64,000 nt of DNA from a candidate division WWE3 bacterium (GCA_026396615.1 JAPLWK010000008.1:75817-139816), one strand, 5' to 3'. Numbered from the stretch's first letter, positions 1,859-59,430 are shown. Notes: generated by a model from the sequence alone, not told the origin. Numbers and translations: made by a program.

Positions 1859-1963
1859 GTCATTCCGGCCCCAGAGCCGGAATCCAGTAAATCCGATTGT
1901 TTTTTGTTATTTGTTGTTTGTTTTTTTGAAGTTACTGGATTCCGGGTCAAGCCCGGAATGACG
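1859..1963. mobile_element. MITE-like composite. It consists of hairpin repeat type B (1859-1893, + orientation), a 38-bp T-rich spacer, and hairpin repeat type A (1931-1963, inverted)
   Basis: Two copies of the dispersed GTCATTCCGG...CCGGAATCCAGTAA repeat in inverted orientation, lying in the divergent recF/fpg promoter region. Confidence 0.4.
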
Positions 1964-4009: not shown

Positions 4010-4069
4010 GTCATTCCGGGCTTGACCCGGAATCTAGTAACTGGATTCCGGCTCCGGGGCCGGAATGAC
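4010..4069. mobile_element. two hairpin repeats (type A in + orientation, type B inverted) abutting or overlapping, forming a 60-bp palindromic composite
   Basis: gtcattccgggcttgacccggaatctagtaactggattccggctccggggccggaatgaca. It lies immediately 5' of the tRNA-Ser gene. Confidence 0.4.
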
Positions 4070-16059: not shown

Positions 16060-16368
16060 ATGGCTATATGCACAATTGGTGATCCACCCACTATAGATCA
16101 ACTGGGCCCCTGCTTTGTAAGCATTATTAAGCTAGTGGTAGGTTTTGCTGGGGTGGCTACCGTAATTGTGTTTTTAATTGGCACCGTTCAGTACATCACT
16201 TCCCGCGGTGACAAAGAAGGCGTTACCGCGGCTAAGGGTACCCTCACCTACGCCATTATTGGCCTGGTGGTGGTCGCCGTCGCCTTTGGGCTAGTCAGTC
16301 TTATTGACCGAACTATTCTTGGTGGAACCAACACTCTTCTCAACTTCGACGTTCCCAGTATTCACTAA
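16060..16368 (+). CDS. TrbC/VirB2-like pilin-family protein (paralog 6, most divergent)
   Basis: LVVGFAGVATVIVFLIGTVQYITSRGDKEGVTAAKGTLTYAIIGLVVVAVAFGLVSLI has the same architecture as the other paralogs. Confidence 0.45.
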   Translation: MAICTIGDPPTIDQLGPCFVSIIKLVVGFAGVATVIVFLIGTVQYITSRGDKEGVTAAKGTLTYAIIGLVVVAVAFGLVSLIDRTILGGTNTLLNFDVPSIH

Positions 16369-16377: not shown

Positions 16378-16409
16378 GTCATTCCGGGCTTGACCCGGAA
16401 TCCAGTAAC
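16378..16409 (+). repeat. hairpin repeat type A (GTCATTCCGGGCTTGACCCGGAATCCAGTAAC), solo copy
   Basis: Exact consensus copy 10 nt after the stop codon of pilin paralog 6. Confidence 0.8.
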
Positions 16410-21497: not shown

Positions 21498-22508
21498 TTA
21501 TTGCAACGCCTTGACGAAATATACAGCCGTCGTCGACCGCCCATCCGCCAACGTCACCGTCCCACTAAACGCATATACCGGTTCCAAATACGTACCTCCC
21601 TTACGAGTTTCCAGATACTCAAGTTTAACGTCAGTGAAACTGGCGGCATTAATTCCCGCCACCATCGCCAAACTATCTCCTACAATTCCCAAAGTCGCGA
21701 GAGTCGCCCGTCCAGCCTTTAAGTCTTCCAAAGCCGTTTCGATCGTCTTTAAAGGATAAACCCCAAAACTACCGTCACCATTTTGCAGCAAATGATAGTA
21801 AAACTTACCGGAAATTAGACCGTCATTTTGCCAACCAAAAGTTATCAGGGTTTCGTCACCAGGCAAACTGGTTACCGGCACATTATTAACGATTCGCAGC
21901 ACATTAAAATCGCCGGTTGGCGTATTTAAAGGCTGGTCGAAACTTAAATCAGGATAATTTAAATCCAGTGATTTTAATAGATTCTGCAGCACTTCGGTCT
22001 TTGAAGAAGCCTCCCCGCCAAATGACGCGATATCGCGAGGCTGCGCCAAGTTAAAAATAAAGCCATCGCTTACGGAATCGTAAAATAGATAATTGCCTTT
22101 TTCCTGCCACGTCTGACCCCCAAAAGTCGGTTTTGACTTAACCGTAAAACCTAATTTGACCGCCAATTTGTCTAGGGTGGACGGGGTTAAAACAGCTGTT
22201 TGCCCAAAGCGATAGACTCGAGCGGTCGCTGGAAACTTTAAAGTCGCTGTATCAATAAAGCTCTGCATGGCTGAAGGAGTGGCTCCCGGAATCGGGCTCG
22301 GTGGTAAAGAAATGACCGGCAGCGAGCCGAAAGTTTGGCTAACAGGCTCGCTAGGCACGGTAGTTGAAGTTGCCGGGGTCGTTGGTGCCGAGCTGCGCGA
22401 GGCCAACAAAAAGATGATTAAACCAATCCCGACAGCGCTAATAATGGCAATGGCCAGGATTTTATTATTCGCATAAAACTCTTTAAAAGCGGCAATATAT
22501 TTATCCAT
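21498..22508 (-). CDS. bitopic membrane protein (N-terminal TM anchor, Pro/Thr-rich linker, extracytoplasmic domain)
   Basis: TM ILAIAIISAVGIGLIIFLLA. Its start codon abuts the stop of the upstream 1178-aa gene. A VirB8/PrgL-like role is pure speculation. Confidence 0.35.
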   Translation of the reverse strand: MDKYIAAFKEFYANNKILAIAIISAVGIGLIIFLLASRSSAPTTPATSTTVPSEPVSQTFGSLPVISLPPSPIPGATPSAMQSFIDTATLKFPATARVYRFGQTAVLTPSTLDKLAVKLGFTVKSKPTFGGQTWQEKGNYLFYDSVSDGFIFNLAQPRDIASFGGEASSKTEVLQNLLKSLDLNYPDLSFDQPLNTPTGDFNVLRIVNNVPVTSLPGDETLITFGWQNDGLISGKFYYHLLQNGDGSFGVYPLKTIETALEDLKAGRATLATLGIVGDSLAMVAGINAASFTDVKLEYLETRKGGTYLEPVYAFSGTVTLADGRSTTAVYFVKALQ

Positions 22509-25500
22509 TAAGAACCTCCACTACAAACCGCAGCCGTCGAATTAACATAAGTTTCCGGGCAGACGCGGCTACCACTCGGATCAAAGATTTCATAATGTAA
22601 ATGGTACCCCGTGGAATAACCGGTTGATCCGGTTTTACCAACAATGCCGCCAATTCCCACATGCCAACAAGAACCCGTTGGCTTTCCGGGCATATAGCCG
22701 CTACCGGAATCACCGGCAATCGGTTGAAGGTGGGCGTAACGAGTGCGGTAACCGCCATCACCGGTAATATCAATATACACACCGTAAGGTAAATTGTTAT
22801 TGTTTTCGGTGGAAACGGCGTAACGACAAGCATTTCCCGCGATTAAAGCGTGGATCTCTGTGCCATCGCCGTAAGGTAAGTCGACGGCCAGCAACCCCTC
22901 ACTACCCTGATGCCAGGAACAGCCAAAAGTGACAGAGGCTGCCCCATCAGGCAAGCCACATGGCGCTATTTCCGCCGGCGTCCCCACTTTTATAACGGCG
23001 GTGGCGCTGTTACTCACACTCGCCCCCGAAATTGTGCCGGTGGCCGTCACCGTAGCAACAATAAAACGACTAGTGGTCGTGTACACTGTCATATTACAAG
23101 TATAGGTGATGCTGGCTCCTGCGGCCAGAGTCCCGGACCCAAAAGAAATATTCCCGCCGGATTCGGTGCCACTGGGCGTACAGGAACCGTAGCTAACGCC
23201 ATGGCCTGGTTGATAATTGTAATTAACGTTTAAACCGATAAGTTCGCTGCTACTGATATTAGTCACCTTTATGGTGTAAACAACAGCGGGACTGGAGTTT
23301 AAAGTTATAATTGGGCGGTCCACCGACATCTCTACTTTTAGATTAGGTGACGCCGCCCCCGCATCCGCCCCGCCGTGAGCGTTAAAATTCGCCCCGCCAA
23401 TTACCCCCATCGCGCCAAAAAGTAGTAGTGGGAATAGACATCCCACCGCGCAACAACCACAACTAACCACTTTTATATTTTCCCCGGAACTCATGAAGCC
23501 GTAATCGGTAAATACGGTCATTTTAAAAGGTCGCCAATAAAAAGCTGCCGCTTTTGACACCGGCCCCTTAATCGCACTCCAAATCTTCCCTAAAAGTTTT
23601 TGGCCAATCCACGCCAAAACAGCGGTGATAATTGGACCTAAAACAGGAAGGGCATTAGATAACGCTTCGATTCCGCCTAATATAGCCCCCAAAACTGCTT
23701 TTAAAGCCACTTTAAGTGCACCTTTAAGACCTAGCTTAAGTGCCATTTTGGCCCCAGAAGAAATAAGTCTTGTCTTTAACAGTAAAGCCCAAGCCTTAGG
23801 ATCCGCCGCAGCTGATTTTACCCAGCCACCTCTAAAAAAATTGATGGGACCCTTCAGCCACGGAACTCTTTTAAAGAGCGCCTCGAAGGCCACGCTTTGA
23901 AGATGATCTAAATTTTTACCGACTGAAGATACGGCCCCAATATATTTCTTAGCCAATCCATGAGAATCGATATCTTCCCAAAATTTAGCGAATTTGGTTA
24001 AATCAGAAACGCTGCCAGTAGCATCAATAATACCGTGGCTAGTTAGAAATGCCTTAATTTGCGGGTTTTTAGCTAAAAAGGTAGCTAATTCCCCCGCTGT
24101 AAGACCGGCCACATCACGAGTCATCCCAGGAGCTTGACTAACAGACCGACCAATAACAGCCTGAAGAACATCAATACTCCCTGGAGCCCCTGAAAGAATT
24201 CCATTGATTTCTGCGGCACTTACTAATGGAAGATTAGTAGAAGGATCAATTATAGAGGCTGCTTTCTGTAAGAAGTTAACTACTTTCCAATCGGTGTCAG
24301 CAAAACCTAAAGCGCTACTTACTTTACCGGCAGTTAGCTTAATTGTTCTCTTAGCGACATCTTTATATTCTTTTTTGACGGGATCCCAGGTAGAGGCTCC
24401 GAAAGCGTCGAATTTATCAATTACATGTATGTATCCAAAATTCTCGGTGTCAATTAAACCAAATGATAACCTATTTACAACATTCGCTAATTTGGGATGA
24501 TCCGCAACTGCTTTAGTTAATTTGTAGAATGGCTGCCAACCGGTTATATCTGTGTCATCAAATCCATTTAGCAACCCGAATGTTTTTACCTTCTTCATTG
24601 CAAAACTAACGTAGTCTGCTGGGCTTAAGTACTTGGCGTATTGGGAAATGCCAGGAATATATTTGGCGACCCTGGTACCCCAAACAAAAAACTTAAAAAA
24701 AGATTTTGAATCAACTGCTTCTAAAAAGTCTGTCGCGGTACTTTGAGTTTCACGATAATTAACTAACTTCACCCAAGTCACCATCCGAGTTGCTTCAGTT
24801 GCAGACAAGCCTAGATCAGTCAAATATTGCGTACCACCCTTCAACACATCCTTCCACGTTTGATCAACATTTTTATACATCTCCTGATACTCTTTCTCTT
24901 TTTCCCAGAATTTATCTCTCGCCGCTTTAAGGTCAGGGTTGGTCATACTGGCCGCGGCGGCCGCCCCAATAACCAGTGGTTGGGGTACAAACGGAACCGC
25001 TAGGACACCTAACCCAGCAGTCGCGGGACTCATGCTACTTAGCCCTTTATTAAACCTATCTTGTATTTTCCCTTTGGTACTTATGTCAAATCTTAAGTTG
25101 TCCCACTTTCTTCCTTGAATATCCCCACTAAAAGGATGAAAAACACCACCGGAATCGGTATAACCGGTTTGTACTACACCGCTTGTGTCTGTATAAGAAT
25201 ACGTAACCGTCTGAGTTGGTGGAGCCACAGCAAAAGGATCTACTTTATCCGCTACCTCTATTGCTGACCCTTGAAGATTCTGCCAACGCAATGCAGCCGC
25301 TTGAACAGCCGGATTAGGAGAGGCTAACATGCTGGTTAAATTAGCCGCATTTATTTGGGCGTTAATAGAATCCAATAAATCAACTTGAAGATCTTGGTAA
25401 TTCTTTAAACGGCTAGGGCGACTACCGCGAGTTATTCCCCATTTCTGAATATCGTTAGCCACTTTCTTGTACATGTCGGTTCCGTTAACTATTACAGAAG

Positions 25501-26044
25501 CTGAAGAGCTGATAGCCCCAGTAACAGGATCTTCTACAACTAAACCTTTACCACCGATACCGTGATTCTCACCTTTAACTAAAGGCTGCCAAAAATACTC
25601 CAGCTCTGCAACTGCTTCTAGATCTTCCGTGTTAACTACTGCTTTCCACCAATTATCTGCAGTTTTTTCTAAAACTTTCTCAGGGTCATCTAACCAATCT
25701 TTTAAATTTAGGGAGAGTGGGGTGCCCGCAGCTCCTGGGAGGTCCCTGAGTTCTTGTTTAGTAGTTTCTACATCAATATCCTTCTCACGATCACCTTCAG
25801 GGTTATAGCGAGCGCTCAAGAAGCGGTTTATATCTGCACCTAAATTTTTATAAACTTTAGCCGGATAAGTACCAATATTTAAATCGTCTATAAAAGCGTC
25901 AAAATCGCCCTCGTCTAAAAGTCCACCCCCGTACTCATAAGGCTCCCATTCTTTTACGTAGCCTCGAGCAATCGGTTTTCTACCTTTTGGGGGAACTTTT
26001 TTAAAACTCCGGCCTGGGCCTCGCTTCTTTTTGGGTGGTGGCAT
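22508..26044 (-). CDS. giant protein (1178 aa). It has a highly basic N-terminus, a long alpha-helical region with a Gly/Ala/Lys-rich amphipathic segment and a TM, a DUF11/CARDB-like beta domain, and a C-terminal peptidase M23 (LytM) domain
   Basis: The C-terminal TGYSTGYHLHYEI and HALIAGNACRYA...YGVYIDI match the M23 HxxxD / HLH metal-binding motifs. The N-terminus is MPPPKKKRGPGRSFKKVPPKGRKP. A tape-measure-like AL-K-rich stretch lies at aa about 720-800. Confidence 0.55.
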   Translation of the reverse strand: MPPPKKKRGPGRSFKKVPPKGRKPIARGYVKEWEPYEYGGGLLDEGDFDAFIDDLNIGTYPAKVYKNLGADINRFLSARYNPEGDREKDIDVETTKQELRDLPGAAGTPLSLNLKDWLDDPEKVLEKTADNWWKAVVNTEDLEAVAELEYFWQPLVKGENHGIGGKGLVVEDPVTGAISSSASVIVNGTDMYKKVANDIQKWGITRGSRPSRLKNYQDLQVDLLDSINAQINAANLTSMLASPNPAVQAAALRWQNLQGSAIEVADKVDPFAVAPPTQTVTYSYTDTSGVVQTGYTDSGGVFHPFSGDIQGRKWDNLRFDISTKGKIQDRFNKGLSSMSPATAGLGVLAVPFVPQPLVIGAAAAASMTNPDLKAARDKFWEKEKEYQEMYKNVDQTWKDVLKGGTQYLTDLGLSATEATRMVTWVKLVNYRETQSTATDFLEAVDSKSFFKFFVWGTRVAKYIPGISQYAKYLSPADYVSFAMKKVKTFGLLNGFDDTDITGWQPFYKLTKAVADHPKLANVVNRLSFGLIDTENFGYIHVIDKFDAFGASTWDPVKKEYKDVAKRTIKLTAGKVSSALGFADTDWKVVNFLQKAASIIDPSTNLPLVSAAEINGILSGAPGSIDVLQAVIGRSVSQAPGMTRDVAGLTAGELATFLAKNPQIKAFLTSHGIIDATGSVSDLTKFAKFWEDIDSHGLAKKYIGAVSSVGKNLDHLQSVAFEALFKRVPWLKGPINFFRGGWVKSAAADPKAWALLLKTRLISSGAKMALKLGLKGALKVALKAVLGAILGGIEALSNALPVLGPIITAVLAWIGQKLLGKIWSAIKGPVSKAAAFYWRPFKMTVFTDYGFMSSGENIKVVSCGCCAVGCLFPLLLFGAMGVIGGANFNAHGGADAGAASPNLKVEMSVDRPIITLNSSPAVVYTIKVTNISSSELIGLNVNYNYQPGHGVSYGSCTPSGTESGGNISFGSGTLAAGASITYTCNMTVYTTTSRFIVATVTATGTISGASVSNSATAVIKVGTPAEIAPCGLPDGAASVTFGCSWHQGSEGLLAVDLPYGDGTEIHALIAGNACRYAVSTENNNNLPYGVYIDITGDGGYRTRYAHLQPIAGDSGSGYMPGKPTGSCWHVGIGGIVGKTGSTGYSTGYHLHYEIFDPSGSRVCPETYVNSTAAVCSGGS

Positions 26045-26090
26045 ATGTGAGTAGTTTAGTGTAAATAGAGCAAATTGTCACCGATCATCC

Positions 26091-26122
26091 GTCATTCTGA
26101 ACTTGATTCAGAATCCAGTAAC
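26091..26122 (+). repeat. hairpin repeat, compensatory variant (GTCATTCTGAACTTGATTCAGAATCCAGTAAC)
   Basis: Both stem arms changed (CCGGG to CTGAA, CCCGG to TTCAG) while keeping perfect 8-bp pairing and the CTTGA loop. Confidence 0.75.
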
Positions 26123-26233
26123 AGTAAATGAATTTGAAATTCTAAATTTGAAATTTGAAATTGTAAATTATCTACAGAGGAACTTTGAGGCTTTGTAAAT
26201 CTTTATCTAAGGCGTTTAGATCGGCGTCTGGCG

Positions 26234-26974
26234 TCAATCTTTGGCTAGCGATAAACACCACACTTGCCCGCAACCGGCTTCTTTTAAAGCTTTCGCGGCG
26301 GAAAGGAAAGTGGCCCCGGTCGTACAGACATCGTCAATCAGAAGAATGTCCTTGTCGACTAGTTTTGACGTGACCTGCGACCGGACTTTAAAAGCCCCGC
26401 TAACATTTTGGTGACGTTCTTCCCTCTTCAATCTGGTTTGGGTTTTAGTATTCTTGATCCGCAATAGGGATTTGACGTCTAAAGTTAAACCAAAGTATGT
26501 AACGAGAGAGCGGGCAATTAGTTCCGAAACATTAAAACCACGGATCATCCGCCGTCGCCAATGTAAAGGAATCGGGATAACGATGGTTTCAGGACCGAAT
26601 GACACTCCTTTATCGACTAATTCCGACCAGGCGATTGGCAGTAATTCCTGAAGAGAATTAAAGGCGTATGGCGAATATTTGGCCTTTTGGAGGATTTTCG
26701 AAAACGGCCGTTTGTAAGTATAAATCGACAGGAATTTTTCCGGTGTAAATTGCGTCGCGCATTGACGATGCGTGTGACCTTTTACTGAGGCCTTGTCGCA
26801 TTTTAAACATACGTTATCACTGCAGAATTTAAGATCACGCTGGCAATCGCCGCAAACAAACTGACCCCTCTTCCCGCAACCGCCACAACGAATTGGAAAT
26901 AATAAATCTCCAATAACTTTCAAGAAGTTATCCACAGTGGTTGTTGTGCTTGTCATTACTGCTTTTAGCGACAT
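26234..26974 (-). CDS. comFC: ComF family protein (ComFC; phosphoribosyltransferase domain with N-terminal double zinc ribbon)
   Basis: N-terminal CGGCGK...CGDCQ...CLKCDK and C-terminal LLIDDVCTTGATFLSAAKALKEAG (the PRTase motif). Confidence 0.75.
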   Translation of the reverse strand: MSLKAVMTSTTTTVDNFLKVIGDLLFPIRCGGCGKRGQFVCGDCQRDLKFCSDNVCLKCDKASVKGHTHRQCATQFTPEKFLSIYTYKRPFSKILQKAKYSPYAFNSLQELLPIAWSELVDKGVSFGPETIVIPIPLHWRRRMIRGFNVSELIARSLVTYFGLTLDVKSLLRIKNTKTQTRLKREERHQNVSGAFKVRSQVTSKLVDKDILLIDDVCTTGATFLSAAKALKEAGCGQVWCLSLAKD

Positions 26975-27212: not shown

Positions 27213-27698
27213 TTGGAAATAACTGCCTTAAAGTGGTCGGCCCCCAGTCGGCCTTTTAAGAAATTAAATAAAAAATACTACTCAACAATTGGAATTTTAG
27301 TACTAGCTGCCTGCTTGGTCTTTTTGGCGGCCGGTCAATTTGCGCTCATTGCTGTGCTATTTGCGGTGTTATTTGCCAACTACGTCCTGGCTAACGTTGA
27401 GCCTGGGATAATTCATCACGAAATTAATGACCGCGGCATCAGCTATGACGGCACTATTTACCTGTGGGACGACTTAAAAAGCTTTGGCTTTAAACATAAA
27501 GATGGCTATACTTTGCTTTTAGTTAACACTAAAGCCATGTTCCCCGGTCAACTTACGCTAATATTGCAGCAAATTGACTTAGAAGAAGTGAAGCAAGTGC
27601 TAATAACTCATTTGCCTTTTGAAGAACGCTTAAGCAATCCCACCTTCTTTGAGAAGATCAGCCACCGCTTCTCAACCATGCTCGCGCTCGACAAATAA
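27213..27698 (+). CDS. hypothetical membrane protein (two TM)
   Basis: RBS AGGAGGTGA 6 nt upstream. Hydrophobic helices at aa 20-60. No recognizable domain. Confidence 0.4.
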   Translation: MEITALKWSAPSRPFKKLNKKYYSTIGILVLAACLVFLAAGQFALIAVLFAVLFANYVLANVEPGIIHHEINDRGISYDGTIYLWDDLKSFGFKHKDGYTLLLVNTKAMFPGQLTLILQQIDLEEVKQVLITHLPFEERLSNPTFFEKISHRFSTMLALDK

Positions 27699-27722: not shown

Positions 27723-27754
27723 GTCATTCCGGGCTTGACCCGGAATCCAGTAAC
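27723..27754 (+). repeat. hairpin repeat type A, solo copy
   Basis: Exact consensus 25 nt after the stop of the 27213 gene. Confidence 0.8.
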
Positions 27755-30743: not shown

Positions 30744-30750
30744 AAAACAT

Positions 30751-30961
30751 GTCATTCCGGCCCCGGAGCCGGAATCCAGTAACTTCCGATTTTAGTTATC
30801 AGTTCTCGGTTGTCGGTTGTCAGAATTTAGTTGCCCAGTTTTCAGTTTGTCGGTCAAATTGACTGATTAACAGACAACTGACAAACCAACATCTGAAAAT
30901 AGAAAACTGAGAACAGATAACTTGATCGATTTACTGGATTCCGGGTCAAGCCCGGAATGAC
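30751..30961. mobile_element. MITE-like composite of 211 bp. It consists of hairpin repeat type B (30751-30783, + orientation), a 147-bp palindromic cargo (family-2 element), and hairpin repeat type A (30931-30961, inverted)
   Basis: The terminal inverted repeats are the dispersed hairpin repeat. The cargo is about 80% identical to 43581-43716. Confidence 0.45.
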
Positions 30962-32004: not shown

Positions 32005-32036
32005 GTCATTCCGGGCTTGACCCGGAATCCAGTAAC
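32005..32036 (+). repeat. hairpin repeat type A, solo copy
   Basis: Exact consensus 17 nt after the stop at 31988. It is followed by the GCATGC-apex palindrome at 32049-32076. Confidence 0.8.
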
Positions 32037-32243: not shown

Positions 32244-34001
32244 ATGGATACGAAGGAATCACCCATTAAAGAAATTAAATCGAAGATTTCAATTGTTGAT
32301 CTTGTCTCTTCCTACGTCCCCCTAAAAAAATCCGGCCGAAATTACAAGGGCTTATGCCCTTTTCACAACGAGAAGACCCCATCTTTCATGGTCAACCCCG
32401 ATCTTGGCATGTTTAAATGTTTCGGTTGCGACGCCCACGGCGATCAGTTTGAGTTTATTCAGCAAGTCGAAGGAGTGGATTTTCCGGAAGCCTTAAAGAT
32501 TTTAGGCCAAAAGACGGGAGTGGAAGTTAAGAACTTTAAAAGTTCCGAGGACGCAACTCGGTCATCGCAGCGTGACCGTTACCTCGCCATCAACAGCCAA
32601 GCCGCCGAATTCTTTCACTTTATTTTAACCAAACATAAAATCGGAGCGGAAGCCTTAGAGTACCTTCATAAACGTGACGTTAGCGACACAACTATTAATG
32701 AGTTTAAACTCGGTTATGCCCCCAATTCCTGGCACAGTCTAGCCGATTTTCTAAACAAAAAAGGCAAACGGCCGGAAGAAATTATTGGCGTGGGCCTATC
32801 AATCCTCGGTGACAATGGCCGGGCGCATGATCGCTTCCGCGGCCGCGTCATGATCCCCTTCTTTAACTTAAGCAACGAAGTCATCGGCTTTACCGGGCGG
32901 ACTCTGCTCCCGGGTGAAGAAGCCAAGTATGTTAATTCACCCGAGTCGCCGGTTTTTAGCAAGAGCAATTTTTTATTCGGTTTAAATGCCGCGCGTCTGG
33001 AAATTAAAAAAAGCGACCTGGCTATCATTGTGGAAGGCCAAATGGATTTTTTAACGCCTTTTCAAGCCGGTTTTAAAAACATTGTCGCTAGCGGCGGAAC
33101 GGCATTGACACTGGGACAACTCAACCTGCTAGGACGATATACCAAAAACTTGGCCCTCTGTTTTGATGGTGACAAAGCTGGTGAAATGGCCATGCGGAGG
33201 GCGATTAACCTCTGCGAGGAAAAAGGCTTTAACGTTAAATTAATTATTTTGCCCAAAGAGTTTAAGGATCCGGATGAATGCGTCCGTCATGACCCGGAAA
33301 TTTTTAAAAAAGCCGTCAATGATGCTTTAAACGCCTATGATTTTTACTTCGTTAGTGCCGCTAAAAGATTTGATTTAAATTCGGCCGTTGGCAAAAAAGA
33401 AGCTAGTAATTTTCTACTTCCGATCATTAAAGAAATCCCGAGTATCATTGAACAGGCTCACTACATTCAAAAAGCGGCCGACGTGCTTAAAGTGTTGCCG
33501 GAAGTTATTAGTCGCGCTTTACAATCAACCGCTGTTAAAGTTGATCGGGATTTTAAGGATGATCACCAAGCAATCAGTGTTAGCCGCGGAGTGGCTGGTC
33601 GGGAAGAATTTCTCCTATCGACGCTTCTCAAGGCCCCTATTAACGATATTTTGCCGATTATTGATGAACTTGCCAAAAAAGACTTTAGTGAAAATAATCA
33701 GAGCCGTTTTGAATACCTTAAAGAACACTTGCTGCTGGAACCCGATATGGATATAACGGAATTTGTGACCCAAAGCCTGGAACCGGATTATTGGCAAAAC
33801 CTGTTATTGCTGGATAGTGGCGACTTTAAATTGGAAATACTGCTGGATTTGGTAAAGTATCTTAAAAAAGAGGCCCTTAATACTCGGCTGCGGGAACTGG
33901 GCGGTAAAATCAAGACCGCCGAAGTAGCCAGTGACAAAGATAAAGTGGCTGAATTGCGTTTGGAGAGCAAGGAAATATATGATAAAATCGGCTCATTATG
34001 A
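32244..34001 (+). CDS. dnaG: DNA primase DnaG
   Basis: [30 protein letters not shown] is the CHC2 zinc finger, and EGQMDFL is from the TOPRIM domain. Confidence 0.9.
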
Positions 34002-35089
34002 ATATTTCTAAAATTCCGGGGTTAGAGAAGCTCATTACCAAAGGCAAGAAACAGGGCTACGTGACCCAAGAAGAAATATTTAAGATTTTCCCGGCCGCCG
34101 AGGACGACCTCGAAACCTTAGACGCCATGTATACCAAGCTCATAAGCCTTGGGATTGACGTTTTTGAGGACTTGGAAAGTGCTAAGGGCAAAGAAAGTAA
34201 AAAAGAAATTCTCTCCGAAAAAGAGCTCCAGTCGGCAGCGCCACTTGATAAAGCCGTCAGTAATGACCCGGTGCGGATGTACCTGCGGGAAATTGGCCGC
34301 GTGCCTCTAATTGATAAAGCCGGTGAAGTCGCTTTGGCTAAAAGAGTCGAAAAAAATGATCAGGAAGCCGTCCATGATCTGATTCGGGCTAATTTGCGGC
34401 TAGTCGTCTCCATTGCTAAAAAATACATGAACCGCGGCATGGTTTTCCTTGATTTAATTGAAGAGGGTAATTTGGGCTTAATGAGAGCTGTGCAAAAATT
34501 CGACTGGCGTCGTGGTTATAAATTTAGCACTTACGCAACTTGGTGGATTCGTCAAGCCATTACTCGGGCCATTGCCGACCAAGCCCGAACGATTCGAATT
34601 CCGGTCCACATGATTGAAACGATCAACAAATATCGCCGGGCCGAACGGGAACTATCTCAAAAACTGGAAAGAGAACCTAAAGTGGAAGAAATTGCTAAAG
34701 CGGCCGGTCTTGAGTTATTCCGAGCTAAAGAAATCGTTAAAATGCTCAACCAGGAGCCAACTTCTCTAGAAACGCCGGTTGGTAAAGAAGAAGATAGCCG
34801 CTTAAAAGAATTTATCCCGGATGATGATTTGTCGTCTTCCCCGGAAGCTTCGGCTAGCTTTGAGTTATTAAAAGAGCAATTAAAAGAAGTGCTGGACACT
34901 CTGGGTGAGCGGGAAAAGAAAGTGTTGCGGCTGCGCTTTGGGATTGACGATGGTCGTAACCGAACGCTGGAAGAAGTTGGTAAGCAGTTCGGGGTCACTC
35001 GGGAAAGAATTCGGCAGATTGAAGCTAAAGCTCTTCGCAAGTTACGGCACCCTAGTCGTGCGAAAAAACTCAGGGACTATCTAGCGTAA
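33998..35089 (+). CDS. rpoD: RNA polymerase sigma factor RpoD (sigma-70)
   Basis: Region 2.4 is [29 protein letters not shown], and region 4.2 is [29 protein letters not shown]. It overlaps dnaG by 4 nt. Confidence 0.9.
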
Positions 35090-35097: not shown

Positions 35098-35129
35098 GTC
35101 ATTCCGGGCTTGACCCGGAATCCAGTAAC
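35098..35129 (+). repeat. hairpin repeat type A, solo copy
   Basis: Exact consensus 9 nt after the rpoD stop. Confidence 0.8.
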
Positions 35130-35173: not shown

Positions 35174-35776
35174 CTAAATTTTATTGTCAATAAAAATATC
35201 TGCTGCACCATCAGGTCGATACTTATTAAAAAAGTCTCGGTCATTGGGCATAAATAAATTGTCCCATATATCTGCAATTTCTGTGTTGTTATCTTTAAGC
35301 AAGTCTCGATTTTTTCCAAACTTGGTGGCAAGTTCAAGTGATAAGTTAATCCAAATTTTAAAATCAAAATAAGATACTGTTTCTGGGTGGAAAATACTAC
35401 AACCTTCGACTATTTGAAACATCTTCTTTTCCAAAGAAATAGTTATTTCAGCTTTTACACCTGGCCAAAAAGCACTATCGTAAATTATTGGCCAAATATT
35501 TTTCTTCGCAGGATCTATAACTTCTTCGATTAGCCTTTTTCGATTAAAATTACTCCAGTCGCTATCTCTACGCCACGGAAATTGGGAACTAAAGGAATCA
35601 ATTGAAACAATATTACAATTACCTAATCTGTCTGCAAGTTCCCTTGCAAGCGTGCTTTTACCGGACCCACCGAAACCAGAGATACCAATAATATATAAAT
35701 CTTTACCAGCACTTTCTGTAGTAATTTTTGTGATAGCTTCTGAAATATCAAACATGCTTAAATTATATACGCTCAA
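35174..35776 (-). CDS. P-loop NTPase, uridine-kinase/PRK-family-like nucleoside kinase
   Basis: The Walker A is YIIGISGFGGSGKSTLARELA. The size (200 aa) matches the PRK/uridine kinase fold. Confidence 0.5.
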   Translation of the reverse strand: MSVYNLSMFDISEAITKITTESAGKDLYIIGISGFGGSGKSTLARELADRLGNCNIVSIDSFSSQFPWRRDSDWSNFNRKRLIEEVIDPAKKNIWPIIYDSAFWPGVKAEITISLEKKMFQIVEGCSIFHPETVSYFDFKIWINLSLELATKFGKNRDLLKDNNTEIADIWDNLFMPNDRDFFNKYRPDGAADIFIDNKI

Positions 35777-35830: not shown

Positions 35831-36826
35831 TTAGTTATTGTAACTGGATTCCGGCTCAGGGGCCGGAATGACATGCCTAACAGCTTCCCAATATTCAGGG
35901 TGTCCTTGTGATTTGGCCCACAGCCACCACTCCACTCCCCACAAATAAACCCGCGAATAATTGCTGGCCGAAATATAATGCAAACTTTTAGTAAACTGCT
36001 CAATACTTAAAATCTTTGTTTGATCGGCGATTGACAGGCCAGTAAGTCCATTTTGACCCCAGGGCTCCATTTGCAGTTCCGTCGCCCAAACTTTTTCTGG
36101 AACCCAACCTGTTAAATACCCTTTTAGATAGTAGTAAACTAGCGGAAATTTTAAATTAACGTAACCCAAAGTCTGGTTATAAGCCTGGCGATAAATACTA
36201 ATTCCTAAAATGTCCGCTGACCCTTTTAGAGGCCTCCACGGACCCCATTCTCCGGAATCCGTGATAACAACTAGACGTGTAGGGTCGAGTGACCGCACGT
36301 AATCAGCCTCGACCTTAAGATCGGCCGCGGTTGATGTCCCACAACTGCCAAAATTAAATAAAGGCTCATTTTCCACCTGCCAAGCAATGACTAGCGGATT
36401 ATTTTTGTAACGATTAACGACCGCTTGGTACATTTTAAATAAAGATGTCCGGTCACCCCACGCTGGTTGGTAACATTCCGGCCAGCGCGGCGCTTTCTTG
36501 CCCATGGCGAGTAGTATCGTGGCATTGCGAGAACTTGCTTCTTTGACCTCGTAATCCAGTTCTGAAAAGTCGTAATGACCTGGAGATAATTCGATCTGAT
36601 CCCAATACGCCACTAGCCTTAGATTTCGAACCTTGAGATCGTCAAGGACATCCTTGTAGGCCTTTTTCCAGTCTAAGCCCAAATAAGTGGCATACTGCGG
36701 CGTAAAAGTGACTCCAAAAATTGGAGGGTTTGCCGGAGCGGAGAAATAATTTAAATAAAGAAGATAAATTCCAAAGATACTAAAGATTGCGATGATTCCA
36801 ATGATTAACTTCCGACGGATAGTCAC
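35831..36826 (-). CDS. membrane-anchored glycoside hydrolase, GH5/GH113-like TIM barrel
   Basis: An N-terminal TM anchor is present. WQVENEPLF contains the NEP acid/base motif of clan GH-A. The C-terminal 13 aa (VIPAPEPESSYNN) are encoded by hairpin repeat copy 35840-35872. Confidence 0.45.
   Translation of the reverse strand: MTIRRKLIIGIIAIFSIFGIYLLYLNYFSAPANPPIFGVTFTPQYATYLGLDWKKAYKDVLDDLKVRNLRLVAYWDQIELSPGHYDFSELDYEVKEASSRNATILLAMGKKAPRWPECYQPAWGDRTSLFKMYQAVVNRYKNNPLVIAWQVENEPLFNFGSCGTSTAADLKVEADYVRSLDPTRLVVITDSGEWGPWRPLKGSADILGISIYRQAYNQTLGYVNLKFPLVYYYLKGYLTGWVPEKVWATELQMEPWGQNGLTGLSIADQTKILSIEQFTKSLHYISASNYSRVYLWGVEWWLWAKSQGHPEYWEAVRHVIPAPEPESSYNN
35840..35872 (-). repeat. hairpin repeat type B (centre CCCCTGAGC), solo copy, translated as the C-terminal tail of the GH5-like protein
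   Basis: Reverse complement of GTAACTGGATTCCGGCTCAGGGGCCGGAATGAC. Confidence 0.75.
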
Positions 36827-39828: not shown

Positions 39829-40500
39829 TTAAGCGTTTTTAAGTGCTAAAGTTAAGCCCAAAGCCAAAAACTTGGCAGCACTGGGAGTAGGACGCCAATT
39901 CCACTGCGAAAGCTTTATAAACAGCATTTCGCATAAGCTTTTAGATTGGTCATCAATGACATCAATCGTTCCAAAGCGACTGTTTTCGAGGTGCCAATCT
40001 AAATTTAAAACAGCGCTGGTTTCAAATTCTCGGCGGTTCTGCTCAAAGAAGTTTCCTAGGTCCGCAAGCCTTCGGGCCCCGAGGATGATCAGCAAATCAA
40101 GGCGCCGTTGCTGCAGGTTTGACTTGATAGCCAAAGGATCGAAGTTACGAGGTAGCGGATGAATCGAAATATTAAAAGCCTTGCCCTCAGCCCAGTAACT
40201 TAATTTCTCCACTTTTTTACCACCGGTATCCAAGGTTAAAACTAAAGTACTTTCGGTAAGATGATCCGAGATTTCCGAGGCTTCCGGCATCGCTTTTATT
40301 TCCTCGGGAAGCGGGCCGGGAAAGGAAACAGCCACCATTTTTCCCTGTGACAGGAGTAAGTCCCGTAGGGCTAAAGCGGCGTACAGACCATCAAGACCAG
40401 CGTTTGGTGAAGCCACAATGGCCACGCTTTGAGTTTCAGCGATAAGGGTTTTTAGTTGATTGTTCTCGGTGTCGGAAGTCATAACCAAAAAACCTGCCAT
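39829..40500 (-). CDS. hypothetical protein, degenerate DHH (NrnA-like) phosphoesterase fold occupying the rbfA/truB position
   Basis: [24 protein letters not shown] resembles DHH motif I but lacks DGD. Motif III is LDWH rather than DHH. Confidence 0.25.
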
Positions 40501-40561: not shown

Positions 40562-40593
40562 GTCATTCCGGGCTTGACCCGGAATCCAGTAAA
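40562..40593 (+). repeat. hairpin repeat type A, solo copy, followed by a CCAAT-rich imperfect palindrome (40594-40725)
   Basis: gtcattccgggcttgacccggaatccagtaaat. Downstream arms AATTACCAAT..CCAATCAATT / AATTGATTGG..ATTGGTAATT. Confidence 0.75.
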
Positions 40594-45144: not shown

Positions 45145-46284
45145 TTATGACGCCACTTTAACCGGCATTATTAGGTGTAGATAGTCAACTCGATCATCGA
45201 GGCGCCAGAGGCCTGGAGCGAGGGCCCCGGTGGTTTCTAAAATGATATTGTCACCACTAGTGTTGTTCATTAAATCTAGAAGATATTTGCCATTAAAAGA
45301 GATGATCAGATCGTCGCCGCTAATGGTTGCTGGAATAGCCACGGTGCTTTCCCCAACTTCGGCGGTAATCGCCGACAAAGTAATTTGGCTTTTACTCCCG
45401 TCTAATTGGACTTTAATAATATTGCTGGCATCGCGAGCAAAAATGCTACTTAAGCGAGCCGCTTTTAAGAATTCCTCTTTACTAAAAGTGCTCTTGGTTT
45501 TAAAGTCTTTGGGAATAATTCGCAAATAATCCGGAAACTCGCCTTCGAGAAGCCTCGTAATAATTAAGAAGTTTTCTCCCGAAAAAGCGGCTAAATTTCC
45601 CTCACGCTCAATCGAAATTGATAAAGGTGAAGTGCCGGAACCAACCAAACGAGCGACTTCCAAAAGAGCTTTAGCCGAAATAACCACCGGTTCTAAAGTT
45701 ATTGGCTCAGGAAGCGAAAGACGACGCTCCGCGAGTCGAAAGCCATCAACGCCGACCAGAACCAAATCGTTACCCTCAGCTTTAAGAAGAATACCGCCCA
45801 GAATGGGCCGAGCGTCGTCAGAGGAAGCCGCAAAAACGACTTCGGAAACCGCTTTGGCAAAGGCTTTAGGATCAATGGTTAAGGAAAGGTCAGCCGGAAC
45901 GGCCGGCAGACTGGGAAACTCTTCAGCGGAGAGGCCGTTAAATTTGGACTTACCGGCGGCCGTTTTTAAATAGAAAATTTCTTTTTCCAAAAAGGCTTCT
46001 ATTTCTGTCGCTGGTAAATTACTAACCACCTCAGAGATAAGACGAGCCGGCACCGAAATAGCCCCCGCTTCGGTAATAGTAGCTGGGATCCAAGTGATAA
46101 TGCTGGTTTCAAGATTGGTGGCGGAGAGTTTAAGGCGGCCATTGTCCTCGGTCGTGATTAAGACGTGACTAAGGACTGGCAGACTGCCTTTAGTAGCCAC
46201 CGCTTTGCTAACAGTCGATAATCCTTCCCGTAAATTTTCTTGGAGGCAGGTAAATTTCACTCTATTTGACCACAGAAACGACAA
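45145..46284 (-). CDS. dnaN: DNA polymerase III beta subunit (sliding clamp)
   Basis: MKFTCLQENLREGLSTVSKAVATKGSLPVLSHVLI is the DnaN N-terminus. About 370 aa, three-domain length. Confidence 0.85.
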   Translation of the reverse strand: MSFLWSNRVKFTCLQENLREGLSTVSKAVATKGSLPVLSHVLITTEDNGRLKLSATNLETSIITWIPATITEAGAISVPARLISEVVSNLPATEIEAFLEKEIFYLKTAAGKSKFNGLSAEEFPSLPAVPADLSLTIDPKAFAKAVSEVVFAASSDDARPILGGILLKAEGNDLVLVGVDGFRLAERRLSLPEPITLEPVVISAKALLEVARLVGSGTSPLSISIEREGNLAAFSGENFLIITRLLEGEFPDYLRIIPKDFKTKSTFSKEEFLKAARLSSIFARDASNIIKVQLDGSKSQITLSAITAEVGESTVAIPATISGDDLIISFNGKYLLDLMNNTSGDNIILETTGALAPGLWRLDDRVDYLHLIMPVKVAS

Positions 46285-47486: not shown

Positions 47487-47723
47487 TTATTTAACCGGAT
47501 CGAAGCCACCGCGACTAAACGGGTTGCAACGGAGAATCCGGTACATGCCCATTAAAGACCCTCGCAGAATACCATATTTACCGATGGCTTCATAGCTGTA
47601 CTGCGAGCAACTGGGAGTAAAGCGGCAGAAATGAATCCCCGGAAACAGTTTGTGAGGAATTCCGTGATCAAAGGAGAGGAGTTTTTGATAAAGCCGAATT
47701 AAGGCTTGTGCGAATTTCGTCAT
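47487..47723 (-). CDS. yidD: membrane protein insertion efficiency factor YidD
   Basis: [45 protein letters not shown] is the YidD signature. Confidence 0.85.
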
Positions 47724-56292: not shown

Positions 56293-56988
56293 TTAAGCAA
56301 TCATCGGCTCCACAATGGGGGCGGTATATTCACTGGTATCCTTTATTTTCTGCTCCCTGGAACTGGCGGGGTTATAAATATCATAAAAAAGCGACACCAA
56401 TTCTTCGGTGTTTAATTGCCGAGCTTTAACCCCCATTTTAGAAAATTCTTTAATAATATGATCTCTTTTGGGGATTAATTGGCTAACCGACTTCTTTAAA
56501 ATATATTCGGTATCTACATAAACTCTTTTAGTGGTGACGCCAAATAAGTTTAGCAGCCAATCGAAGGGGCCACTCCCTGTCGCCGACGTGACAATTCCGT
56601 AAGGAATAATCACGTAGAATTTTTTATCTAAGACATCATTTTGGGTAATTAATTCTTCAATAAATTTTCGATACCCAATTACCTGGCCTCGTAACTTTTC
56701 ATTAGCCTGGCCCTCTTCCGCTTTTGTGAGTATCTCCAAATAATTAGATACGTCCATTCTTTTACTGCGAATCACGATTTGAATCGGGAAAGATAGAGAA
56801 TTTAATAGACCGGCGTAAGCGGCAATCATACTATCTTGCTCGCGTTCAGAAAGGAGGTCAAAGTTAACGGCGGTGGTTTGAATCACTATGGCCGCCCCGC
56901 CGGTTTTTAGAATCAAAGTATCATTCTTAATATCCGCGATATCAATGTGTTGCTGAGTGGAAGCATTTATGGGAGTGTTATATTTCAT
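56293..56988 (-). CDS. N-terminal domain of the VirB4/TraE-like ATPase, encoded as a separate ORF in the same frame
   Basis: DIADIKNDTLILKTGGAAIVIQTTAVNFDLLSEREQDSMIAAYAGLLNSL...KKFYVIIPYG parallels the first 200 aa of Gram-positive VirB4 homologs (PINFxLxSExEQ ... RFFVIxxY). Confidence 0.55.
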   Translation of the reverse strand: MKYNTPINASTQQHIDIADIKNDTLILKTGGAAIVIQTTAVNFDLLSEREQDSMIAAYAGLLNSLSFPIQIVIRSKRMDVSNYLEILTKAEEGQANEKLRGQVIGYRKFIEELITQNDVLDKKFYVIIPYGIVTSATGSGPFDWLLNLFGVTTKRVYVDTEYILKKSVSQLIPKRDHIIKEFSKMGVKARQLNTEELVSLFYDIYNPASSREQKIKDTSEYTAPIVEPMIA

Positions 56989-58403
56989 AGATTAGGCTTG
57001 CTGACGAAGTTTAACGTTGGTAAGAGCCTCCCATCAGCAATTACTTCCATTGTAGCAAACTTGCTCCCCGGGAGGCTCGCGGTGACCCGATATTTGCCGT
57101 TAGGGAGCGGGGTGGAGACTACGAATTCTCCTAAATCATTGGTTTTAAGGGCTCTTAAGGGGTCGCCGGTGTCATCTTTAACGATAATAATAACGCCTTG
57201 AATCAGTTTTCCCAAACTATCTTTAACAACGCCATTTATTACATTAGGGCTGGCAGTGAGAGAGCGGCTTTTGTCGATTTTTGGCTCTTCCAATATTTCC
57301 TGGGCGGCATTACCCATTGTAGGTTGAATAGGTACGATAGGTTTGATAGGTGTTATAGGTGTATTGATCGGTGGGTTGGTTCTTAAAGCGGCTAGGTTTT
57401 GTTTCATTTCTTCAAATTCGGCTGCGATTTGTTTTTTTTTAGTTTTCTCGTCTTCTTTAACCTTTAATTCCGCCGCTTCGGCAGCCTTAGTCTCCATTTC
57501 CAGTTTTTTAAGTTCCGCGGTTAGGAGTGGCGGGACTTCATCGACCGTTTTTGGGGCCGGCACCATCGTTGGCATTTGAACGGGACTGTTAAAACCCCGT
57601 TTTTCCCTAATTTTAGTCACCAATTTTTCTAAATTTGTGACTTGTTCGGTAATACTGGCCTCCTGGGGTTTAGTTGTAACCTCGTCATTATTAGGAAGGG
57701 ACGCACCATAAACACTTTTAGCCGGAATATTCATTTGAGTTTGGGTATCTTCAATCTTTAAGGCGCGACCGGCATTACCTTCGGGAGTTACGGTCACTTC
57801 CGGTGGGGTTTCAATAGTCGTTGTGGTTGTCGTCGGAGCGGTCGTTGTTAAATTACCGGGTACTGAAACATTAAAATTTAAATGTTCTAAGTAAAGTTCT
57901 TCGGCGAGATCGAATTTATTTTTAGGTTTATTACTTTGGGCTGCTCCCAGATAAGTCATTAAACGGGCCCGAGAGTTGGCGGGAGCAATTATTAGCGCTT
58001 CATTTTTAAGGGCGGAGGCGTAATCAGCCAGTAGAAATTTAGGCGCCAGTGGCTCTTTTTTCCAGGCCCGCAAGGTCGGACTACTTATTGCTTTCCAAAA
58101 ATTACGAATCCAAACATCCAGACCCCGATTTTCAAAAGGCACGAACGCAAAAGCCAAGCCTCCCAAACTAATAAGAGCAACAAGCGGCCACTTAAAAATA
58201 AATACCAGATGTGAAGAGTACACTGCATAGGCACCAACTACCCCTGTCGCGGCATATACGAATTGGCGGACTGTCATCGAGCCAATCAACTTAAATTCCA
58301 CACTCATGATGTTCTGGGGAACGGGGTGCTGTTTACTGGATGAAAAGTCGGTGGTTGGTAGTGGCATCGACCCTATTATAGTAGAATGCAACCATAAATA
58401 CAC
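56985..58403 (-). CDS. PrgI-like (VirB3-analog) two-TM N-terminal domain fused to Pro/Thr-rich linker, coiled coil and C-terminal Ig-like/carboxypeptidase-regulatory-like domain
   Basis: N-terminal KLIGSMTVRQFVYAATGVVGAYAVY...WPLVALISLGGLAFAFVPFENRGLDVWIRNFWKAI. The C-terminus is VKDSLGKLIQGVIIIVKDDTGD...NGKYRVTAS. It overlaps the VirB4 N-domain ORF by 4 nt. Confidence 0.4.
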   Translation of the reverse strand: MYLWLHSTIIGSMPLPTTDFSSSKQHPVPQNIMSVEFKLIGSMTVRQFVYAATGVVGAYAVYSSHLVFIFKWPLVALISLGGLAFAFVPFENRGLDVWIRNFWKAISSPTLRAWKKEPLAPKFLLADYASALKNEALIIAPANSRARLMTYLGAAQSNKPKNKFDLAEELYLEHLNFNVSVPGNLTTTAPTTTTTTIETPPEVTVTPEGNAGRALKIEDTQTQMNIPAKSVYGASLPNNDEVTTKPQEASITEQVTNLEKLVTKIREKRGFNSPVQMPTMVPAPKTVDEVPPLLTAELKKLEMETKAAEAAELKVKEDEKTKKKQIAAEFEEMKQNLAALRTNPPINTPITPIKPIVPIQPTMGNAAQEILEEPKIDKSRSLTASPNVINGVVKDSLGKLIQGVIIIVKDDTGDPLRALKTNDLGEFVVSTPLPNGKYRVTASLPGSKFATMEVIADGRLLPTLNFVSKPNL

Positions 58404-58405: not shown

Positions 58406-58504
58406 GTCATTCCGGCCCCGGAGCCGGAATCTAGTAACAGATCAAAATTATAAATTAAAAATTTATTGTATATTTACTGGATTCCGGGTCAAGCCCGGAA
58501 TGAC
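58406..58504. mobile_element. MITE-like composite. It consists of hairpin repeat type B (58406-58438, + orientation), a 35-bp AT-rich spacer, and hairpin repeat type A (58474-58504, inverted)
   Basis: Located between the dnaJ stop and the PrgI-like start. The dnaJ stop codon lies inside the right-hand repeat. Confidence 0.4.
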
Positions 58505-59430
58505 TAGTGGGTTTGTTTTTGAAGTTCCTCTAATATTCTTTTCTCATCGCGGCTTAGTTTTTTAGGTATTTCGACGAGGATGCGAACAAAAAGGTCACCG
58601 CGGCCTCTTCCATGTAAATGAGTTAAACCTCGGCCCTTAACTCTAAAGTCCGTTCCAAACTGAGTACCACTGGGGATTTTTAGTTTTATATTTTCAACCC
58701 CAACTTCTTTGCGGTCGCTTAAAGCTGGGACTTCGACTTCACCGCCTAAAGCGGCAGTCGTAAAGCTGATGGTCTTTAAAGTGTACAGGTCATCTCGTTC
58801 CCTAGAGAATCTGGCGTCAGGAACGACACGAATCGTTAGCAGCAAATCTCCAGCCGGCGTCCCCGCCGGTCCGGCTTCTCCTTCGCCGGTAAACTTCATT
58901 TGGGCCCCATCATAAATACCGGCTGGAATTTTAATTTTCAGTTTTTTACCTTCAAAGTTTATGTCTTGTTCGTCTCCGTAGGCAGCGGCTAGGAAATTAA
59001 TTCCAATTTGATAATGTTTGTCGCGACCCTTGCGACTGCGACCGTAGCCGCCACCAAAGAAAGATTCAAAAATATCACCCATGCCCCCTTGCCCAAATAG
59101 ATCCCCTAAATCAATGCCTTCACCATTTGTTGAATACGTGTAGCTAAACGGTCCGCCGCCGGCAAAGGGATTACCACCATTCCCGGCTCCCGCGCCGGTC
59201 CCCGCGCCAAAGGCGTCGTGGCCAAACTGGTCGTAGGCCTTGCGCTTTTCGGGATTGGAAAGGACCTGGTAGGCTTCATTGATTTCTTTAAAGCGCTCCT
59301 CGGCGCCGGCGGTCTTATCTATATCCGGATGATGTTTCCGGGCCGCCTCACGAAAAGCCTTTTTTAAGTCGTCTTCCGATGATCCCTTAGGCACTCCCAA
59401 AACTTCATAATAGTCTCTTTTAGTTGACAT
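58504..59430 (-). CDS. dnaJ: DnaJ-family co-chaperone lacking the zinc-finger domain (CbpA/type II-like)
   Basis: J domain DYYEVLGVPKGSSEDDLKKAFREAARKHHPDIDK with HPD, a G/F-rich region, and C-terminal substrate-binding domains. No CxxCxGxG repeats. Confidence 0.8.
   Translation of the reverse strand: MSTKRDYYEVLGVPKGSSEDDLKKAFREAARKHHPDIDKTAGAEERFKEINEAYQVLSNPEKRKAYDQFGHDAFGAGTGAGAGNGGNPFAGGGPFSYTYSTNGEGIDLGDLFGQGGMGDIFESFFGGGYGRSRKGRDKHYQIGINFLAAAYGDEQDINFEGKKLKIKIPAGIYDGAQMKFTGEGEAGPAGTPAGDLLLTIRVVPDARFSRERDDLYTLKTISFTTAALGGEVEVPALSDRKEVGVENIKLKIPSGTQFGTDFRVKGRGLTHLHGRGRGDLFVRILVEIPKKLSRDEKRILEELQKQTH

Follow-up and report, generated by a model that had tools for sequence, protein, structure and literature searches.

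The window, by which we mean the whole 64-kb stretch of DNA that was analysed, appears to come from an uncultured Patescibacteria/CPR-like organism, as suggested by its genes for a T4SS-type pilin, a DUF5673 protein and ComF together with small housekeeping genes. At 26091-26121 on the plus strand, 47 nt upstream of where a minus-strand gene (22508..26044) starts and 113 nt past the comF stop codon, direct reading gives the 31-nt sequence GTCATTCTGAACTTGATTCAGAATCCAGTAA. Positions 26094-26101 (ATTCTGAA) pair with positions 26107-26114 (TTCAGAAT) in eight perfect pairs around the loop CTTGA (26102-26106), as the initial annotation of this locus had it when it described a perfect 8-bp stem and an unchanged loop. 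The arms quoted there also included an outermost C...C (CATTC.../...GAATC), which is not a pair, and the stem stays at 8 bp.

This hairpin is a divergent copy of a repeat. The sequence GTCATTCCGGGCTTGACCCGGAATC has nine other exact copies in the window, with 0.00 expected from 100 dinucleotide shuffles; by a Hamming scan, eight of the nine are identical across 31 nt and the ninth has one tail substitution. Extended to 11 mismatches, such a scan brought up no partly decayed copy anywhere in the window. Compared with the nine copies, the hairpin at 26091 (hereafter the variant) has exactly six differences (26098 C>T, 26100 G>A, 26101 G>A, 26107 C>T, 26108 C>T and 26110 G>A), all of them G:C>A:T transitions and all in the inner half of the stem. 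The six positions resolve into three exactly compensated pair conversions (C-G to T-A, G-C to A-T and G-C to A-T), confirming the three compensatory pair changes that had been annotated at this copy, and the remaining 25 positions, covering the head GTC, the outer stem ATTC/GAAT, the loop CTTGA and the tail CCAGTAA, are unchanged. Six random substitutions in 31 nt would give three complementary stem pairs with a probability of about 3e-6; the observation is real and far from chance. The same hairpin is predicted for the variant as for the common type (type A, below), but it is weaker both as DNA (-5.6 vs -8.5 kcal/mol) and as RNA (-6.4 vs -12.2 kcal/mol).

Ten nucleotides past the variant's tail there is a 7-nt tandem repeat, AATTTGA, in 4.6 copies (26131-26162), which overlaps a minus-strand promoter-like site (26167-26139). 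We considered whether the hairpin itself might supply a promoter, its -35 box being either the loop's TTGACC or the head's ATGACA, and rejected this because the spacing to -10-like boxes, read by eye, is inconsistent among copies. An intrinsic terminator was also rejected, as the tail CCAGTAA has no T-run and a terminator scan around the variant gave none.

The resident repeat family

Fifteen hairpin copies of two types are present in the 64-kb window (Table 1), ten of type A, the variant included, and five of type B. Type A has the form GTC-ATTCCGGG-CTTGA-CCCGGAAT-CCAGTAA and type B the form GTC-ATTCCGGC-CCCGGA-GCCGGAAT-CCAGTAA, the substitutions among the five type-B copies being confined to the loop and tail. 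Between the two types, the apical pair differs by a compensated G-C to C-G change. Forward-strand DNA fold z-scores of the window copies range from -3.2 to -4.3.

Table 1. Hairpin copies in the window and the GIY-YIG-domain reading frame near one of their doublets
Feature	Coordinates	Strand	Remarks
Variant type-A hairpin	26091..26121	+	GTC + ATTCTGAA + CTTGA + TTCAGAAT + CCAGTAA; solo
Type-A hairpin (GTCATTCCGGGCTTGACCCGGAATCCAGTAA), exact	1932..1962	-	partner of type B at 1859; head towards fpg start
Type-A hairpin, one tail substitution (CTAG)	4010..4040	+	head 11 nt from 5' end of tRNA-Ser (3907-3998, minus)
Type-A hairpin, exact	16378..16408	+	solo; head 10 nt past stop of T4SS-pilin-like ORF 16060..16368
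Type-A hairpin, exact	27723..27753	+	solo; between ORF 27213..27698 and tRNA-Arg
Type-A hairpin, exact	30931..30961	-	partner of type B at 30751
Type-A hairpin, exact	32005..32035	+	solo; 17 nt past a stop codon; then a separate G+C-rich stem and T-run, terminator-like by eye
Type-A hairpin, exact	35098..35128	+	9 nt past stop of 33998..35089; distant partner of type B at 35841
Type-A hairpin, exact	40562..40592	+	solo; head 62 nt from start of 39829..40500 (minus)
Type-A hairpin, exact	58474..58504	-	head abuts TAG stop of dnaJ-like 58504..59430; partner of type B at 58406
Type-B hairpin, loop variant CCCAGA	1859..1890	+	GTC + ATTCCGGC + 6-nt loop + GCCGGAAT + CCAGTAA
Type-B hairpin, tail CCAGTTA	4038..4069	-	overlaps tail of type A at 4010; 52 nt from GIY-YIG ORF end
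Type-B hairpin, consensus copy	30751..30782	+	
Type-B hairpin, loop variant CCCTGA, tail CCAGTTA	35841..35872	-	overlaps 3' end of ORF 35831..36826
Type-B hairpin, tail CTAGTAA	58406..58437	+	head 2-3 nt from start of 56985..58403 (minus)
Truncated GIY-YIG-domain ORF, 58 aa	4122..4298	-	PF01541, 34.8 bits, above Pfam threshold

Of the 15 copies, ten are arranged as five inverted pairs, tail to tail, whose GTC heads point outward (1859/1962, 4010/4069, 30751/30961, 35098/35872 and 58406/58504), and every one of these pairs (5/5) joins one type A to one type B; the solo copies are those starting at 16378, 26091, 27723, 32005 and 40562. All 15 are intergenic or at the extreme ends of ORFs. Fourteen of them have a gene boundary within 0-62 nt of the head end, seven at stops and seven at starts (one of the latter being a tRNA 5' end). 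The exception is the type-B copy at 4038-4069, with its head towards a stretch that has no ORF of 60 aa or more and contains the truncated GIY-YIG ORF.

Several other features of the window were seen along the way. The members of the 35098/35872 pair are 718 nt apart and enclose a terminator-like hairpin and a 200-aa P-loop ORF (35174..35776, minus) with weak AAA_18 and Zeta_toxin-like matches, all under Pfam cut-offs; this ORF may be cargo inside a doublet, or the hairpins on either side of it may be two independent insertions. An ATG directly follows three of the five type-B copies (30748-30750, 35873-35875 and 58403-58405), on the strand reading ...GGAATGAC and then ATG, and coincides with a gene start at least at 58405, which suggests very short or absent leaders beside the hairpin head. 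Translation of the hairpins gives recurrent spurious peptides of the VIPGLTRNLV, HSGLDPESS and LDSRLRGND-like kinds (window 3986-4228 plus, 3976-4071 minus and 4003-4068 plus; also in fetched loci L183, L209 and L214), and annotations probably contain false hypothetical proteins that derive from them. Farther along, rnpA (47668-48009, minus) and dnaA (48286-49641, plus) are divergent, and the 276-nt spacer between them is a possible oriC; dnaN (45145-46284), encoded on the strand opposite to dnaA, follows yidC and jag. The sign of the GC skew does not change across the window, including the dnaA/rnpA region at about 48 kb.

Pairing and sequence in a larger set of copies

The initial annotation had read the variant as evidence that structure is selected and sequence is not, and had proposed a covariation check over a larger set of copies. 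We scanned one genome per species for GTCATTC-N4-CTTGA-N4-GAATCCAGT, a pattern that leaves four pairs free, including the three changed in the variant. At least 120 stretches matched, and the MAGs that they come from span many bacterial phyla and include some archaea, with Proteobacteria, Nitrospirota, Thermodesulfobacteriota, Chloroflexota, Planctomycetota, Patescibacteria, Methanosarcinales and others among the matches listed. The inner stem is perfectly complementary in 120 of the 130 matches listed (92%), and the inner stems are of at least 17 different kinds. When metagenomes were scanned with the extended flanks of the window copies, 110 of 123 inner stems were perfect (89%). We also fetched a set of 240 loci from genome_contigs and metagenome_contigs, against which the window gave no BLAST match.

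When all eight pairs were left free and the search was anchored only on GTC, CTTGA and CYAG, the non-canonical outer stems recovered were mostly compensated as well (ATCC/GGAT, ATGC/GCAT, GCCC/GGGC). In an alignment of 62 distinct sequences (A1), 94% of cells pair and double-sided changes are found at seven of the eight pairs; the covariation score is 0.543, compared with 0.191 for shuffled alignments, none of 500 shuffles reaches it, and slid partners score at most 0.152. Because double-sided changes are so widespread, nearly all cells pair and no shuffle reaches the score, we conclude that pairing is constrained. The proposed covariation check therefore gave a positive result, and the core of the initial annotation, that pairing rather than inner-stem sequence is kept, is borne out by a large independent copy set. 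The annotation had also stated that usually non-compensatory arm substitutions would speak against it. This is not what was seen: a looser finder gave 632 hairpins, of which 543 are perfect, 69 contain a single mismatch and 20 contain two.

The other half of its statement, that sequence is not under selection, needs narrowing. The GTC head, the ATTC/GAAT outer stem, the CTTGA loop and the CCAG tail hardly vary across dozens of phyla, and the statement is therefore true of the inner stem only. Since hundreds of copies elsewhere obey the same pairing rule, the variant, though clean, is an ordinary representative of a known kind. The double substitutions themselves are real, but their independence, which had also been claimed, is not demonstrable: among the matches listed, perfectly paired steps lead from the common type to the variant (CGGG, 72 copies; CGGA, 48; CGAA, 1; TGAA, 3), and the variant's TGAA/TTCA stem is found there in two unrelated organisms as well, a Bdellovibrionales MAG (L122) and a Patescibacteria MAG (L136).

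The three pair changes may thus have been independent events, may have passed through wobble or mismatch intermediates, or may have come about by copying from arm to arm through template switching. Quasipalindrome template switching is established in E. coli, and a single such event could copy a substitution in one arm into its partner arm. It could even be proposed that the structure is unselected and that template switching or intra-hairpin repair during replication simply keeps inverted repeats perfect, a mutational by-product that would produce double-sided changes in single events and would be in keeping with the rarity of imperfect copies everywhere and with the lack of half-changed intermediates in the window. 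We consider this improbable, as it gives no account of the identical head, tail, loop and outer stem across phyla, of six changes that spare the other 25 positions, or of hairpins that bracket one gene family (discussed below). Template switching supplies at most the compensating step, and retention of the result still requires constraint.

The tail bears on where the variant arose. CCAGTAA is the tail of 13 of the 15 window copies, compared with 5 of the 130 cross-phylum copies among the matches listed, and the variant carries the lineage-specific form CCAGTAAC. Because this tail is common to the window copies, the variant belongs to the resident family and is not a recent foreign arrival. 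No orthologous locus of the variant was recovered, the nearest ComF homologues being 51-54% identical and on non-syntenic contigs (L362-L365). In the nearest sampled relative lineage (L362, ComF 53% identical) a 4-nt-loop hairpin, GTCGTTCCCGCGCAGGCGGGAACCCAGTAAC, is present at 3677-3703; in its arms, GTCGTTCCCGC...GCGGGAACCCAGTAAC, the outermost A-T pair has become G-C with compensation, and its tail is CCAGTAAC / CAGTAAC as in the window copies.

Doublets, polarity and neighbouring GIY-YIG genes

The closest published relatives are in Neisseria. Chenal et al. 2025 (Nat Commun, PMC11893778) redefined about half of the dRS3 copies of this genus as oriented NTS, CGTCATTCCCGCGMAVGCGGGAATCYRG, and reported that NTS-like "Ssn-related motifs" (SRM) occur across bacteria. 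SsnA, a 94-aa single-domain GIY-YIG protein, binds the motif only as ssDNA and on one strand, with cleavage a few nucleotides to its 5' side. For binding, the most critical base is the C that follows the palindrome, and for cleavage the three bases that precede it, whereas the loop is dispensable; binding and cleavage restricted to one strand of ssDNA are known for four homologues only (PMC11893778). When we scanned viral contigs with the flanks alone as anchors, many 28-mers were returned (for example GTCATTCCCGCGCAGGCGGGAATCCAGT and GTCATTCCCACGAAAGTGGGAATCCAGT), which we recognised as being of the Neisseria dRS3/NTS type.

By motif search and tblastn, GIY-YIG genes (PF01541) were found 7-130 nt from hairpins of the present kind in about 12 of the fetched loci (L230, L292, L180, L355, L348, L326, L277, L116, L044, L278, L352 and L122). 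In L230, L277, L278 and L352 the hairpin beside the GIY-YIG gene is exactly type A, and the ORF in L230 (PF01541) has two copies of the window's type-A sequence, one on either side. Homologues of the L230-type protein in L116 and L044 have flanking hairpins that match the NTS consensus, which ties the CTTGA subtype to the published family. Compared by eye, the L230-type protein has the Tyr/Tyr/Glu spacing of Nm SsnA Y6/Y17/E64; no solved Ssn structure was found. In the Bdellovibrionales MAG (L122 2984-3492), a TGAA/TTCA hairpin like the variant's has a GIY-YIG gene 18 nt away; tblastn matches this gene as two segments separated by 174 nt, and it may be interrupted or decayed.

No intact Ssn-type nuclease gene was found in the 64-kb window. 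The 58-aa GIY-YIG-domain ORF of Table 1 sits between smpB (stop 4329) and the 4010/4069 doublet and has a TAG in place of the expected catalytic Glu codon of the A..RE..(I/L)K motif (read-through ...AYKR-stop-YYLKHK-stop), so it is probably a pseudogene. Its middle region has UPF0213/SLX1-type likeness at least equal to its L230-type likeness, and its only match in the protein database is its own exact copy. As a candidate remnant of the partner nuclease gene it is suggestive only; with 15 hairpins in 64 kb, its position beside a doublet could be coincidence.

Across all fetched loci there are 199 tail-to-tail doublets within 250 nt, in which the partner of a CTTGA-loop hairpin is a 4-nt-loop hairpin 91 times and another CTTGA hairpin six times. 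Full-length GIY-YIG genes sit inside such doublets in L355, L292, L180, L326 and L116, the first being a compact unit of hairpin, 6 nt, gene, 4 nt and inverted hairpin. Solo intergenic hairpins have the head nearer the ORF boundary in 92 of 127 cases and the tail nearer in 35 (p = 4e-7, with crude ORF proxies), at median distances of 55 nt for the head and 161 nt for the tail. This head-to-gene polarity may reflect polarity of insertion, or it may be that a tail-side partner has been lost.

Intergenic palindromes in inverted doublets of two alternating types recall REP Y/Z in BIMEs, and REPINs, and Neisseria dRS3 is known from the literature as an integration target of filamentous prophages. 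It could be argued on this basis that the repeat is a REP/REPIN-type element mobilised by a RAYT (an IS200/IS605-like Y1 transposase), or the target of an IS110-family recombinase, with no role for a GIY-YIG enzyme. However, the repeat has no GTAG head, neither Y1_Tnp nor an IS110 transposase is present among the roughly 36 window ORFs scanned, and the gene inside doublets at other loci is GIY-YIG. Unbiased clustering of ORFs near hairpins also gave no recurrent transposase family, its largest cluster being a spurious translation of the repeat. We regard this explanation as very unlikely.

The doublets and the head polarity fit the suggestion in PMC11893778 of an insertion-sequence-like NTS-ssnA-NTS. 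An extension of this idea, which we offer as a tentative and somewhat doubtful proposal, is that heterotypic doublets are the two ends of a single-strand mobile element driven by a GIY-YIG (Ssn) nuclease. The hairpin-ssn-hairpin units of the five loci just named would then be autonomous, the window's doublets and solo copies would be MITE-like derivatives, and the inner-stem covariation, TGAA included, would mark co-evolving nuclease and hairpin specificities. If true, this would amount to a new transposition chemistry, an analogue of IS200/IS605 built on the GIY-YIG fold.

Probable action as single-stranded DNA, and known systems

The initial annotation had left undecided whether the structure acts in DNA or in RNA. 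The literature on the closest family, the mixed orientation of the copies and the lack of a wobble preference all point to single-stranded DNA rather than RNA as the form in which the hairpin is read. Orientation with respect to transcription is mixed because seven copies adjoin stops and seven adjoin starts, the element itself being asymmetric. Among the 632 hairpins, forward-strand mismatches include 34 G.T and 28 A.C, so there is no preference for G.T, which accounts for about 0.7% of pairs.

We weighed the possibility of an RNA-level element, such as a REP-like 3'-UTR stabiliser or processing signal, in which compensation would preserve an RNA stem. Seven copies lie 0-25 nt past stop codons in sense orientation, those at 32005 and 35098 precede separate terminator-like hairpins (flanks read by eye), the type-A RNA fold is stable (-12.2 kcal/mol), and the three changes are all transitions, making G-U intermediates possible. 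The seven other copies, however, are antisense and upstream of gene starts, the strand-specific conserved head and tail do not track the direction of transcription, and the scarcity of G.T pairs is unlike typical structured RNAs. Rfam identifies only tRNAs and a tmRNA in the window at the gathering threshold and nothing in 26040-26240 in an E-value scan, and the characterised relative does not bind RNA (PMC11893778). An RNA-level role is unlikely, though conceivable for the seven copies past stop codons.

A double-stranded operator for a dimeric regulator was also considered, as the element is palindromic and often near promoters, the variant for example having promoter-like sites on either side. 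Symmetric half-sites would be expected to conserve their sequence, whereas here the inner stem varies freely if paired; the head and tail are asymmetric, and half of the copies follow stop codons. We therefore give the operator hardly any credence.

The explanation that we favour, and think likely, is that the sequence at 26091 is a copy of a dispersed, oriented 31-nt hairpin repeat of the NTS/dRS3-like SRM family, and that it acts as a ssDNA hairpin recognised by an Ssn-type nuclease. Each unit consists of a 5' head, (T/C)GTC, an 8-bp stem with a conserved ATTC/GAAT outer half and a free inner half, a short loop and a 3' tail, CCAG (here CCAGTAA). By analogy with the characterised relatives, one strand would fold into the hairpin once the DNA is single-stranded, and a single-domain GIY-YIG nuclease of roughly 95 aa (Ssn) would bind it and cut a few nucleotides 5' of GTC. 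Recognition would require a stem, the head and the C that follows the palindrome, so that the inner pairs could drift if both arms change together, which is the pattern seen in the variant. An active cognate nuclease is presumably encoded in the source genome, the variant would still be recognised, and the copies may have been dispersed as non-autonomous offshoots, MITE/REPIN-like, of a hairpin-ssn-hairpin unit. With Nm SsnA, a change to the palindrome that keeps the hairpin abolishes activity, so that sequence matters besides structure (PMC11893778); by this analogy the variant, having three of eight pairs changed, may not be a substrate of an enzyme that reads type A.

With six changes, all compensated and none elsewhere, the variant amounts to a natural experiment in which the inner stem is read as structure and the flanks as sequence. 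Type A, type B and the variant offer substrates for learning how Ssn nucleases split recognition between shape and sequence, a division that matters for the proposed use of these enzymes as programmable ssDNA cutters. With the repeat placed in it, the Ssn-related hairpin family reaches a CPR-like genome and gains a CTTGA-loop subtype missed by the published search string, and the doublet architecture and head-to-gene polarity bear on how the repeats spread.

Among known systems, IS200/IS605 elements have subterminal hairpins that are read as ssDNA at the ends and are cleaved at a fixed offset from the hairpin, and the compact hairpin-gene-hairpin units of L355 and L230 are alike in this arrangement. 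They differ in having a GIY-YIG rather than an HUH fold, and Ssn units are not known to transpose. REP/BIME and REPIN sequences are likewise short extragenic palindromes with two alternating subtypes in inverted doublets, and for them too a link to a domesticated single-strand-specific nuclease or transposase has been proposed. The window repeat, by contrast, has a GTC(A) rather than a GTAG head, no RAYT was found among the window ORFs scanned, and the associated gene is GIY-YIG and not HUH/Y1.

With dRS3 and the Neisseria intergenic mosaic elements, the window repeats have in common the ATTCC...GGAAT palindrome core and the intergenic arrays. The sixth base is G rather than C and the spacing is 9, so that where dRS3 is defined as ATTCCC-N8-GGGAAT the window has ATTCCGGG-N5-CCCGGAAT, or ATTCCG-N9-CGGAAT; no RS segments or prophage junctions were seen. 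Similarly, a regex search for the published degenerate SRM string (HGTCWY N0-2 YYVSBRH N0-5 WNVSBRG N0-2 RNCYNB) gave no matches on either strand of the window. The repeats fall outside both definitions because the inner stem and loop differ, the flanks being in agreement: CCGGG-CTTGA-CCCGG or CCGGC-CCCGGA-GCCGG in the window, as against CCCGCG-MAV-GCGGG in NTS. Other differences from the NTS/SRM systems are the host, which here appears to be an uncultured Patescibacteria/CPR-like organism, and the lack of an intact ssn gene in the window.

The likeness to NTS/SRM is otherwise extensive. Both are 8-bp stem hairpins of about 28-31 nt with a loop that tolerates change, both occur in many intergenic copies clustered near genes, and in other genomes small GIY-YIG genes are bracketed by the identical hairpin type. 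The SRM trait of a multicopy, hairpin-forming inverted repeat of 20-50 nt, almost always intergenic, is seen in the 15 copies in 64 kb. Both have an oriented head and tail, (T/C)GTCATTCC...GGAATCCAG in the window and CGTCATTCCCGCGMAVGCGGGAATCYRG in the published NTS, with oriented flanks CGTCATTCC...GGAATCYRG in common, and GTC + stem-loop-stem + C[CT]AG is found in all 15 window copies, the variant having even the NTS-like CGTC.
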